Below are positions 3,739 to 6,942 of a stretch of 64,000 nucleotides of DNA, piece by piece. Numbering within the stretch: position 1 is the first letter of the stretch; each line of letters begins with the position of its first letter. Made by a program: the position numbers and the translations under genes. The notes below the pieces were generated by a model. The model saw only the letters and a program-made list of their open reading frames with translations. It searched no databases and was not told the origin of the DNA. This stretch comes from an uncultured Pseudomonadota bacterium (GTDB lineage Bacteria; Oederibacteriota; Muellerivitia; Muellerivitales; Muellerivitaceae), in NCBI GenBank assembly GCA_963843375.1, contig CAWJKT010000009.1:247245-311244 (forward strand), in the 5' to 3' direction.

Positions 3739-3763
3739 GAATTAACTCAGAAGAAAGTTGGTC

Positions 3764-5092
3764 ATGAAGTTATACCTCATAGGGCTTGTTTCGCTTCTCC
3801 TTGGGATAGGCTTTTTAACCCTCGGCTGTCCTGGCAAAAATAATCCCTCCAGCCCCTCTGCACCTGCTCCTGTGCAAGCTACGCCCACTTTTACACAAGC
3901 TTGCTGGGTGGGTACTTCCCCTACTTGTACTCCGTACGTTACTCCGATTGGTATAACAACCCCAACCGGTTATTACGTGACCGGCACTGTTAACTATACC
4001 GGCTCTCGAGGATCGGTTAATTCAACGAATTATTTGTACGTGGCATTAGCGAATTCCAGTTTTAATTTCGTCTCGGGCGAAGATATTGCCATGAATGGCG
4101 GGACCTATCAAATTTACGCTTCTTCAGCAGGAACTTATTATCTAGGGGCATTTTATATTAACGTTAGTGAACCGCATATTTATTATCCCTCTACTTGTAT
4201 AGAACCTGGGGCGGGAATCACCATAAATGGGGGGGTTGCAGGAATCGATTTGTCATTTGGGGATAGTTGCACCTTTAGTACGCCATCTCCTACTCTTGGG
4301 TCGTCGACTTTGACCGCCACTCCTACCAACCAAACACCTGTCGCCACGCTGACCTTTACTCCGACGATCACGCCTACCTTCAACTACACTTGGACGGCAT
4401 CCAACACGCCGACGAATACCTACCCGCCGGGAACGAATACTCCCACCCGTGTGCCCACCAACACACCCACTCCAACACCTACCGGCACTTTAATCATTAT
4501 TTATCCGACCGCTACACCGACGGAAACGGACACCCCCACCGAAACCGAAACTTCGACCGTCACTGATACGCCGACGGATACCTGGCCGCCAGGAACGGAC
4601 ACGCCCACGGCCCAAGCCACGGATACTCCCACCGAAACGCCCACGGACACGGAATTTGAAGTCGACATACCGACCGGCACCCCTACAGATACTGAAACCG
4701 ATACGGCTACCCACACGCCCACTGAAACTGTTACCCCTACTCCCACGGTCACCGACACATCCACGATTACCGATACCCCCACCAATACGCCGACTCCTGG
4801 CGCCACCTATAGTGTTTATTTCACGGCATCGGGAACTGCCGGTGTCGAATATGAAATTGTTTACAGTTCTGTTATTTCCGGAGCGGTTACCGCCGTTGTT
4901 TATACAGGCACTTTAAACGGTGGGAATTGGACCTCCCCGACAGTCGATTTTCCTGGAGATACCGAAGTTGGTATTTCCGCCGGGGGTGTTACCAGCACAA
5001 ATTCAATTACGGTAAACCTTTATGTCGACGATGTTTTGGAAGGGACAGGTACTAGCTCCAGCGGCGCACCCGTTTCCTATCTATTGCCTTAA
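3764..5092 (+). CDS. Lipoprotein, paralog of 2476 and 13032, with an Ig-like module and acidic Thr/Pro repeats
   Basis: [31 protein letters not shown] leader; [10 protein letters not shown] module; TETPTDT repeats. ATG at 3764 chosen over TTG at 3758. Confidence 0.8.
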
Positions 5093-5241: not shown

Positions 5242-5269
5242 TGTTCCATACGGGGACCCGGATTGGACA
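5242..5269. repeat. Array site 2: TGTTCCATACG-GGGACC-CGGATTGGACA; group II intron insertion target
   Basis: Same spacer, B-type right arm; the intron starts at 5270. Confidence 0.8.
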
Positions 5270-6052
5270 GCGTGCCAGGATCAAGGATGCAGCAGCCAGC
5301 AGGTGCGGTTCGATATGAACCAAGTCCTGACGGGGTAACCGCCCGAGGGCCCCGAAGTCAACCTCCGTGGCAAAGTCGAGAGGCCTTGTCCGAAACGAGG
5401 TCATAAACCTTCGAAAGGAAGGGAACAATACTACAGTCCGTAACATGAAGTGAATCCTGCCGCGTCGTGACGAGTCCGCCGAAAGGCTATAGGGGAGGCC
5501 GAGCCGCGTGTCCAACGGCGAAGGCAACAATCTCATCCTGAAACGGGATTGGGTGGGGTAAATCCTCCGGCGTATTGGGAGCGGAATGTTGGAAAGGCTG
5601 GTGCATCAACCTGGGAGATCCTACCCGTTAAAAGAGCGGCTCCTATAAGGGCGACCGAAAGGGAGACGTGACGGGAGGAAGTCGGAGGGGGAAATAGTAC
5701 CGCTTAGAGGGGGAGGACAACAAAACCTCACCTGAGGGAAGGTCCCCTGCTTCAACCATGTGCCTTCAAGAAGGGTGGCGCTGGAGAATGCCGGAAACGG
5801 CTAATAACTCTGAAGGTCAAAAGCGCGTAATCTTCAACAAGCACTATGCCGAACGGCCAAGGGAAGTAGAACCTGTAAAGCCGTCGGAGAAAAGGTTGTC
5901 GGAAAGCCGTATGATCGAAAAGGTCACGTACGGTTTGATGAGGGGGCGTTGGAAACGAAGTGATGAGGGAACCTAGTTGGGGCACGGAACCGGAAACGGG
6001 GAAACAGATCAAGGGGCCCTCTGCACACAACCGCGCCAGCGCTCTACTCTAC
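5270..6052 (+). mobile_element. Group II intron lacking an intact IEP (internal ORF deletion)
   Basis: 5' GCGTG (GYGYG-like) followed by CCAGG 5275-5279, which can pair with CCTGG 5610-5614 at the end of domain I. D3-like GGAAGTCGGAGGGGGAAATAGTACC...GAGGGAAGGTCCCC. D5 AAGCCGTATGATCGAAAAGGTCACGTACGGTTT (~5904-5936, AGC triad). Long D6 ending GCGCTCTACTCTAC at 6052. Confidence 0.92.
5788..5963 (+). pseudogene. Remnant of the intron-encoded reverse transcriptase/maturase: N-terminus fused to C-terminus
   Basis: GGAG RBS then MPETANNSE; shifted frame 5820-5963 reads KARNLQQALCRTAK (IEP N-terminal motif)...VVGKPYDRKGHVRFDEGALETK* (typical IEP C-terminus reading through D5). No RT motifs such as YADD remain. 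Confidence 0.75.
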
Positions 6053-6171
6053 AACAAATAATGGGCCGAATCCTTTGGTGATCCTCATGGGCAATAGGGG
6101 GTTGATTCGATTACTCCCGCAGTTAAAAATAACCGCGAAAACGAAAACGTTTTTTTCCTAAGGAGAAAACC

Positions 6172-6942
6172 ATGAAACAACCCGTCGTTATTGTTACCGG
6201 AGCCAGTCAGGGCATTGGTCGTGCCACAGCCATAAGACTAGCCGCTGATTTTAAGGCCGTGGTTCTCGGGGCCCGGAACGAGGAGGGCCTCAACGAGACG
6301 GCCAAGTCGGTCCAATCCGCCGGAGCGGAGCCCCTGGTCCTGCCGCTGGATTTACGCCAGGGCGAAGCAGCCAAGACCCTCGTGGACAAAACTCTGGAAA
6401 ATTTCGGCCGGATCGACGCTCTGGTAAACATAGCGGGGGCCGTGCCCCAAATCGACCTTTTGGAAATGACGGACGCCCAATGGGACGATGGAATGGCGCT
6501 CAAACTTCACGGCGCCCGGCGAGTGACAATTCATGCGTGGGAAGCACTGAAAAAATCCAAGGGTTCGGTGGTATTCACCTCGGGCAACTCGGCCCTGGCG
6601 CCCAAGTCGGCCTTTGCCGCCGTAGCCGTCACCAATGCGGCCATTGTGGCCTTGGCCAAAGCCTTCGCGGAACGGGGGATCAAGGATGGCGTTCAGGTAA
6701 ATAGTGTCCTGCCCGGGCCTGTGTTCACCAATCGCCGAAAAACCTACATGGAAAAATACGCCCCCCTGCACAACATGACAGTGGAAGAGGCGCTTGAAAA
6801 ATTTCCCGCCGAGGCGGGCATTACCCGATACGGTCAGCCAGAGGACATCGCTAACTTGATGGCGTTTTTGGTTTCCGCGGAAGGGAAGTGGATGACCGGC
6901 TCGGCAGTTCGAATGGACGGCGGCGAGATCAAGGCGGTCTAG
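6172..6942 (+). CDS. SDR family oxidoreductase
   Basis: TGASQGIG Rossmann motif, LVNIAG, VNSVLPG, MTGSAVRMDGG; AAGGAG RBS. Confidence 0.92.
   Translation: MKQPVVIVTGASQGIGRATAIRLAADFKAVVLGARNEEGLNETAKSVQSAGAEPLVLPLDLRQGEAAKTLVDKTLENFGRIDALVNIAGAVPQIDLLEMTDAQWDDGMALKLHGARRVTIHAWEALKKSKGSVVFTSGNSALAPKSAFAAVAVTNAAIVALAKAFAERGIKDGVQVNSVLPGPVFTNRRKTYMEKYAPLHNMTVEEALEKFPAEAGITRYGQPEDIANLMAFLVSAEGKWMTGSAVRMDGGEIKAV

Follow-up and report, generated by a model that had tools for sequence, protein, structure and literature searches.

Why does a group II intron stand at the very edge of a repeated palindromic site, and did recognition of that site bring it there? The question is raised by a stretch of 64,000 nucleotides (nt) from contig CAWJKT010000009.1 of an uncultured bacterium. 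The whole stretch is called the window here; coordinates are window positions, and the feature strand is +. An initial annotation, made from the sequence of the window alone, had placed a group II intron directly after the right arm of one of the window's sites and had proposed that it represents a lineage specialized on such sites. Comparison with related genomes makes it very likely that positions 5270 to 6052 are a group II intron without an open reading frame (ORF-less), IIB-like in its ribozyme, and that it belongs to a lineage of the candidate division FCPU426 that retrohomes to the edge of the palindrome.

The target belongs to a family of 28-nt palindromes with the consensus TGTCCACGAC-GGGGACCC-GTCGTGGACA (10+8+10). 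Repeats of the site occur in the window between 2281 and 24604, in co-oriented clusters between short genes, and the genome as a whole holds about 45 clustered copies (contigs C6, C9, C10, and C18). The right arm ends in GTGGACA, the common variant, or in TTGGACA, and the base that follows uninterrupted sites is A or G. Palindromic sites were found in 28 of the 31 genomes of the family and are conserved over at least 15 genera; a control search with the reversed pattern gave 0 matches. The site is thus an abundant and conserved target, as had been suggested. The one in front of the intron is:

5242..5269, + strand: target site, with a degenerate left arm TGTTCCATAC, the loop GGGGACCC, and a B-type right arm GGATTGGACA

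Homologous copies of the intron were collected from the same assembly, 60 related genomes, a pattern scan with one genome per species, and metagenome contigs. The set comprised 77 unique junctions, 75 of them with enough 5' flank, and 30 complete copies. Two Rfam families match the window copy: RF02003 (group-II-D1D4-4) at 5312-5448, with 61.6 bits (gathering score 49, E = 4e-11), and RF00029 (domains V and VI) at 5902-6052, with 45.1 bits (gathering score 40). The sequence between the two matches is free of long ORFs. The right arm GGATTGGACA ends at 5269 and the homologous mobile unit begins at 5270 (GCGTGCCAGG), precisely where the initial annotation had put the boundary, and its coordinates all proved correct. 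The intron and its parts are as follows:

5270..6052, + strand: ORF-less group II intron of 783 nt with a IIB-like ribozyme, delimited by the Rfam matches and by the limits of homology in other copies
5270..5274, + strand: intron 5' terminus GCGUG (variants in the lineage are UCGUG, the majority, CCGUG, and GUGUG)
5312..5448, + strand: domain I core (Rfam group-II-D1D4-4)
5904..5936, + strand: domain V, 33 nt; catalytic triad AGC at 5905-5907, AC bulge at 5926-5927
5940..6049, + strand: enlarged domain VI of about 110 nt, with a predicted fold of -41.6 kcal/mol and a bulged branch-point A6046

Domain V folds with -14 kcal/mol (z = -4.0). A6046, 7 nt from the end at 6052, is bulged in the minimum free energy fold and conserved in all copies. 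Domain VI is about three times the usual size; its basal helix is conserved, and for the distal part the copies have one or the other of two unrelated versions, which points to recombination between intron subfamilies. Together with termini that show a first-penultimate interaction and a loop for exon-binding site 1 (EBS1), both described below, domain V and the branch point give the element the features of a group II intron.

A contact between the first and the penultimate base is known in group II introns (ai5gamma). These two positions covaried in 30 of 30 complete copies, U1 occurring with G in 24 and G1 with A in 6; the window copy, which ends in ..UAC, is in the second class (G5270, A6051). 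Most copies therefore begin with U, unlike the near-universal G of other introns. Since the covariation matches the known contact, it fixes the ends at 5270 and 6052, and the domain V/VI match, which extends over 5902-6052, bears out the 3' end that had been proposed. At all 77 unique junctions the conserved element begins two bases before GTGCCAG, directly after the ..GGACA of the site. The predicted joined exons read GGATTGGACA followed by AACAAATA. The same genome and its relatives also contain uninterrupted sites that share this arm and have similar flanking sequence (GGATTGGACAAAGAAA, GGATTGGACAAACCAAG), in accord with the earlier remark that the exon join resembles other sites.

How the intron would recognize its exons can be read from the following elements, in which IBS denotes an intron-binding site:

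5503..5519, + strand: EBS1 stem-loop, stem GCCG 5503-5506 / CGGC 5516-5519
5263..5269, + strand: IBS1, UUGGACA, the 7 nt that close the 5' exon and form the distal right arm of the site
5471..5475, + strand: candidate EBS2, CGAGU, the 5-mer directly after GCGUCGUGA
5256..5260, + strand: candidate IBS2, ACCCG, located in the loop and the inner part of the right arm (exon positions -14..-10)
6053..6053, + strand: putative IBS3, A, the first base of the 3' exon

The hairpin that had been noted earlier for showing the exact complement of TTGGACA was found as described. Its 9-nt loop, CGUGUCCAA, contains UGUCCAA at 5509-5515, which is complementary to 5263-5269 at 7 of 7 positions. A complement to a 7-mer somewhere in 783 nt has a chance of about 5%. 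The loop is homologous to EBS1 of the other copies, and wherever loop and exon are both readable the two covary; the stem covaries as well (GCCC/GGGC, ACCU/AGGU). The predicted fold and the covariation agree in identifying the loop at 5507-5515 as EBS1. The combinations of EBS1 and IBS1 were:

UGUCCAA with UUGGACA (window copy)
UGUCCAC with GUGGACA
UGUCUAC with GUGGACA (wobble) or GUAGACA (perfect)
UGUCUAU with AUGGGCA
UGUCAUA with UAUGACA
UGUUCUU with GGGGACA
UUUACAC with GAGUAAA

The initial annotation had left EBS2 and EBS3 unplaced. For EBS2, the candidate at 5471-5475 has counterparts in relatives that covary with the exon: in a sister subfamily the 5-mer pairs 5/5 with exon positions -13..-9, with compensatory changes in five variants (EBS2/IBS2: AUGGG/CCCAU, AAGGG/CCCUU, ACACC/GGUGU, CAGGG/CCCUG, and CUGGG/CCCAG). 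At the 3' exon, the flank could be read in 28 complete copies, and position +1 was A in 27 of them. After free sites the base is either A or G, and the near-constant A thus implies selection for IBS3. L125, the lone copy whose +1 base is C, differs from related copies at too many positions for the comparison to locate the EBS3 partner; to judge from the near-invariant A, EBS3 is probably a U that pairs with it. Two other candidates for EBS2 were rejected. One, CGUCGUG (5464-5470), would face the left arm CACGACG; it shows no covariation with that arm, and a near-identical motif, GCGCCGUGA, is present in distant relatives with other targets. The other, GACGGGG (5329-5335), is a strand of a covarying helix (CGGGG/CCCCG vs CCAGG/CCUGG).

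The lineage, called lineage 1 below, was found only in FCPU426, an uncultured candidate division with metagenome-assembled genomes (MAGs) from peat, palsa, and soil. A near-perfect 10+8+10 palindrome precedes the intron at 43 of the 75 junctions, and most other junctions lie behind sites with hybrid arms, with indels, or with an interruption already in place. The 5' exons of homologues, a check proposed with the initial annotation, are thus mostly the same palindromic site or its hybrid, indel, or split forms. A minority of junctions (about a dozen) are in other targets, to which the EBS sequences have been adapted; both EBS1 and EBS2 fit such nonpalindromic targets, e.g., AATGACACGWATATGACA and ..GTAGAGTAAA. 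The palindromes, the unrelated flanks, and the covariation of EBS1 and EBS2 bear out the proposed specialization of the lineage. EBS1 of the window copy has A, not C, at position 7 and fits the TTGGACA arm in front of it rather than the common GTGGACA. Among the other targets, AATGACACG(A/T)ATATGACA recurs and holds five lineage-1 introns (L029, L030, L125, L126, and L137), which are retuned to it with UGUCAUA or UGUCUUA as EBS1 and AGUGU as EBS2.

At about 1 in 8 junctions the loop of the site reads GGGTCCCC rather than GGGGACCC. Because both loop orientations are occupied, the palindrome can be entered from either strand, with a strong bias. We infer that this bias may reflect the direction of transcription or replication.

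The copies fall into two size classes, 782-802 nt and 1970-1988 nt (about 1.98 kb). The long form's intron-encoded protein (IEP) has RVT_1 and GIIM domains as well as a YADD motif and lacks an endonuclease (En) domain. In the window copy, domain IV lacks a reverse transcriptase (RT)/maturase ORF and keeps only its N-terminal codons:

5788..5862, + strand: RT remnant, the first ~25 codons (MPETANNSEGQKRVIFNKHYAERPR), recognized by aligning the translation to the full-length IEP

One deletion breakpoint, after CGGCCAAG, is common to all ORF-less copies. The breakpoint junction, CGGCCAAG followed by GG..AAAGGTTGTCGG, is the same in the window and at loci L008, L010, and L040, and L006 has an extra small deletion besides. 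Judged from these alignments, the window intron is a deletion derivative of the 1.98-kb RT-encoding intron, its RT having been lost in one ancestral deletion in domain IV. The ORF-less copies, 79-93% identical to the window copy, come from five or more genomes that represent different genera; in three genomes (G025, G026, and G008) several of them stand beside full-length copies. The copies are mosaics: the window copy has a domain I nearest to one full-length subfamily (87-89%) and a domain VI nearest to ORF-less copies of the other subfamily (93%). Its own MAG holds a 98%-identical 134-nt 5' fragment behind another B-arm site (GGATTGGACA) and a further intron fragment with 71% identity. The first of these (L002 1501-1700; C18:59732-59930) ends after its 134 nt at a poly-T run of about 35 nt, beyond which the sequence is GC-rich, coding, and unrelated; this may reflect a chimeric join in the contig or an insertion at a later time.

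Several observations weigh against an intron that homes to the site by base pairing. The 5' terminus, GCGUG, has C instead of U at position 2 of the GUGYG consensus; copy L007 has the canonical GUGUG. EBS2 of the window copy pairs at 4/5 positions, with a central A-C mismatch and a register shifted by one. In a search for an orthologous empty locus, the joined flanks matched nothing in the 31 family genomes apart from the site itself, and an exact-junction scan of metagenome contigs returned nothing. By RNA folding, canonical sites form hairpins of -23 to -27 kcal/mol, and the window site, with its degenerate left arm, one of only -8.8 kcal/mol. The EBS1-IBS1 duplex, at -7 to -10 kcal/mol, is far weaker than the hairpin of a canonical site, in which IBS1 is buried; splicing there may be inefficient or need help. 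Finally, no cognate RT was found in the intron's own MAG, which is 80% complete: the sole related RT there is 41% identical and belongs to the IEP of a different intron lineage.

The last point is shared by a reading in which the association is passive, the site and intron having been duplicated as one block along with sites or cassettes; in that case the intron would never have targeted the site and would be an immobile relic. The sites are indeed themselves repeated and arranged in arrays. The junction sites nevertheless differ among themselves in the same features as free sites do, namely, the left arm, the orientation of the loop, and the inner right arm (GTC, ATC, TTC, GGA, or AGA), and the outer flanks are unrelated, from which it follows that the insertions were independent and not duplicated site-plus-intron blocks. 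Moreover, differences between exons are tracked by EBS1 and EBS2, +1 is selected as A, and some copies sit in sites already split by the other lineage. Passive duplication is therefore very unlikely; the narrower claim that the window copy alone is now a dead relic is possible.

A second alternative would make the element a class C intron (IIC or IIC-attC) that reads the hairpin shape of the site and needs only a short IBS1. Insertion directly 3' of a stem-loop is a hallmark of IIC introns, the IEP of lineage 1 lacks an En domain, and the RTs of solved structure that match it best are IIC proteins (7UIM, 224 bits, and GsI-IIC, 220 bits, as opposed to 176 for T.el4h and 164 for LtrA). A shortened domain V is a criterion of class C, as is a CGC triad (O. 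iheyensis intron). The window copy has instead the AGC triad that had already been taken to set it apart, in a domain V of normal length (33 nt), and its ribozyme measures about 750 nt excluding the ORF. EBS1 is 7 nt long and pairs inside the arm rather than after it, a covarying EBS2 exists, copies also occupy nonpalindromic targets where EBS1 and EBS2 match, and the window site itself, with its degenerate left arm, is a weak hairpin. As to IIC-attC introns, the 28-nt palindrome is not a canonical attC (R''/L''..L'/R', GTTRRRY), and the intron lies on the same strand as the flanking ORFs (3758-5092 and 6172-6942), whereas IIC-attC introns are oriented opposite to cassette transcription (PMC7923331, PMC12584367). 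Sequence-based, IIB-like recognition, the AGC triad, the normal domain V, and the ~750-nt ribozyme together exclude class C and IIC-attC, and we regard this alternative as extremely unlikely.

The remaining alternative concerns the 5' end and involves one more feature:

5307..5321, + strand: lineage-specific hairpin GGUUC-GAUAU-GAACC, inserted within the GGUG..AAGUCC motif

The stem of this hairpin shows covariation (GGCUU/AAGCC in some copies, a longer hairpin, GGGAGUAGGCC.., in others). If the intron started at the GUGCG of 5303-5307, which resembles a 5' splice site, as the initial annotation had allowed, positions 5270-5302 would belong to the 5' exon or to another element and TGTCCAA would be complementary to the arm only incidentally; this has next to no chance of being right, for although GUGCG is closer to GUGYG than GCGUG is and the Rfam domain I match begins at 5312, 9 nt past it, the motif reads GUGAG in most copies and lies within a hairpin insertion that is missing from the distant relative L037, the 33 nt of 5270-5302 are conserved in every copy with only the variable site upstream of 5270, EBS1 pairs and covaries with the 7 nt that end at 5269, and base 5270 covaries with the penultimate base of the intron.

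We therefore return to an intron lineage that would spread by retrohoming to the 3' edge of the 28-bp palindromic intergenic repeat. Covariation shows that EBS1 (5509-5515) pairs with the terminal 7 nt of the right arm and that EBS2 (in the window copy, the candidate at 5471-5475) pairs with bases of the loop and inner arm. The intron lands exactly after ..GGACA, leaving the palindrome intact. Since the window copy has lost its RT, the enzyme would have to come in trans; a full-length 1.98-kb relative would be the likely source of help in splicing and of mobility.

Known introns share parts of this pattern. The nearest plasmid-borne IEPs are from Leptospira (56%) and Bacillus thuringiensis/mycoides (51%). 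Publications in which the Rfam D1D4 families appear do not link these families to intron classes. Like lineage 1, the IIC-attC introns (e.g., S.ma.I2) and the IIC introns at terminators are specialists on an abundant intergenic stem-loop in gene arrays, have an En-less IEP, and leave coding sequence untouched. IIC introns differ in having a compact ribozyme of ~400 nt with a CGC triad, an IBS1 of 3-4 nt, and no EBS2, and in reading the shape of the hairpin; here a ~750-nt ribozyme with an AGC triad pairs within the arm through an EBS1 of 7 nt and has an EBS2 of 5 nt. Co-orientation with the flanking genes and a site that is not a canonical attC set the window intron apart from IIC-attC in particular.

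ORF-less introns have been described as rare in bacteria (reviews; PMC4424553). The closest documented precedent for trans-mobilized ORF-less introns with shared breakpoints is Thermosynechococcus elongatus, in which the ORF-less forms of TeI3/TeI4 arose by one domain IV deletion with shared breakpoints (Mohr et al. 2010; PMC2882425). There, as here, ORF-less copies with common deletion breakpoints keep remnants of the ORF ends and have spread beside ORF-bearing "drivers," with diverged EBS sequences and twintrons. Such an IEP-bearing relative shares the genome with ORF-less copies in G025, G026, and G008 and was not found in the 80%-complete MAG of the window. TeI3/TeI4, however, are CL2/IIB introns with En-containing IEPs, confined to one genome, and inserted at many unrelated targets. 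Lineage 1, by contrast, has an En-less IEP, its ORF-less branch extends over several genera, and nearly all of its copies are on one palindrome.

RmInt1 of Sinorhizobium meliloti, a class D intron (PMC1802570, PMC5010178), is likewise an En-less IIB-type intron of high copy number that homes by EBS1/2/3 pairing into a repeated element (ISRm2011-2). It differs in that its target lies within the transposase gene of the insertion sequence, not in a short palindrome, and in its canonical GUGCG 5' end. To our knowledge, no abundant ORF-less lineage of RmInt1 is known. The IIB introns UHB.I2 and H.ha.F1/F2 are located just downstream of attC in integrons of halophiles and in clusters of attC sites lacking an integrase (CALINs) (PMC7923331). 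They resemble the present case as IIB-type introns after hairpin sites, some in integrase-less arrays rich in toxin-antitoxin genes. Unlike it, they are single or truncated copies without conserved flanking exons or demonstrated pairing of EBS with the site, whereas dozens of independent junctions here show sequence-specific targeting. Literature searches returned no description of this intron lineage or of IIB-type pairing to a palindromic repeat.

Specialization on hairpin sites has previously been tied to class C introns, which read shape; in lineage 1 it would be reached by ordinary EBS1/EBS2 pairing with the sequence of a palindrome. The copies also provide a natural covariation series for EBS1, EBS2, and the first-penultimate contact, including U1-G, of a kind usually obtained only by mutagenesis, and they are among the few bacterial cases in which ORF-less introns have multiplied across genera.

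The palindrome is a target of a second lineage as well. Outside the window, contig C9 of the same genome (C9:135167-137106; loci L004 and L079) carries a full-length group II intron of 1940 nt with a canonical GUGCG 5' end, an RF02003 match of 119 bits, and an IEP that is 41% identical to that of lineage 1. This intron splits the loop of a palindromic site, between TTGTCCACGACG and AGGAGCCATCGTGGACA, and has an EBS1 region, CGUCGUGG, that complements the left arm of the site, CCACGACG. The same insertion position recurs at no fewer than 13 further junctions in relatives. At six loci of genome G025 (L008, L028, L045, L095, L100, and L108) both lineages lie in tandem on one site, the lineage-2 3' end (..CCTCGACCCTAC) being followed by GGGACCC(G/A)TCGTGGACA and then by the lineage-1 intron. 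That two unrelated intron lineages home to the 28-bp site indicates that it has long been abundant and stable in FCPU426 genomes, which bears on the nature of the cassette-like arrays.

It is conceivable, if unlikely, that the FCPU426 introns are a working part of an integrase-less, integron-like cassette system and not just parasites of the sites. Two intron lineages and their non-autonomous derivatives would then be tuned to two positions of a family-wide palindrome. Ectopic reverse splicing, followed by recombination between intron copies, would attach whole or half sites to new genes, and cassettes would thereby be created or shuffled. Creation of cassettes has likewise been proposed, and never shown, for IIC-attC introns and attC sites. 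The palindrome is a putative "cassette" recombination site; no tyrosine recombinase was found in the window, the nearest on the contig being about 215 kb off.

Two further loci have features of their own. At L003, a Phd/PIN-like toxin-antitoxin pair is located between two palindromic sites. At L036 (779-2661; genome G018, contig C42), an ORF-less lineage-1 copy is part of a twintron: its domain II contains a third group II intron, which has its own domain V/VI match at 2577-2661 and an RT ORF broken into two parts and is inserted at the point that corresponds to 5698/5699 of the window.

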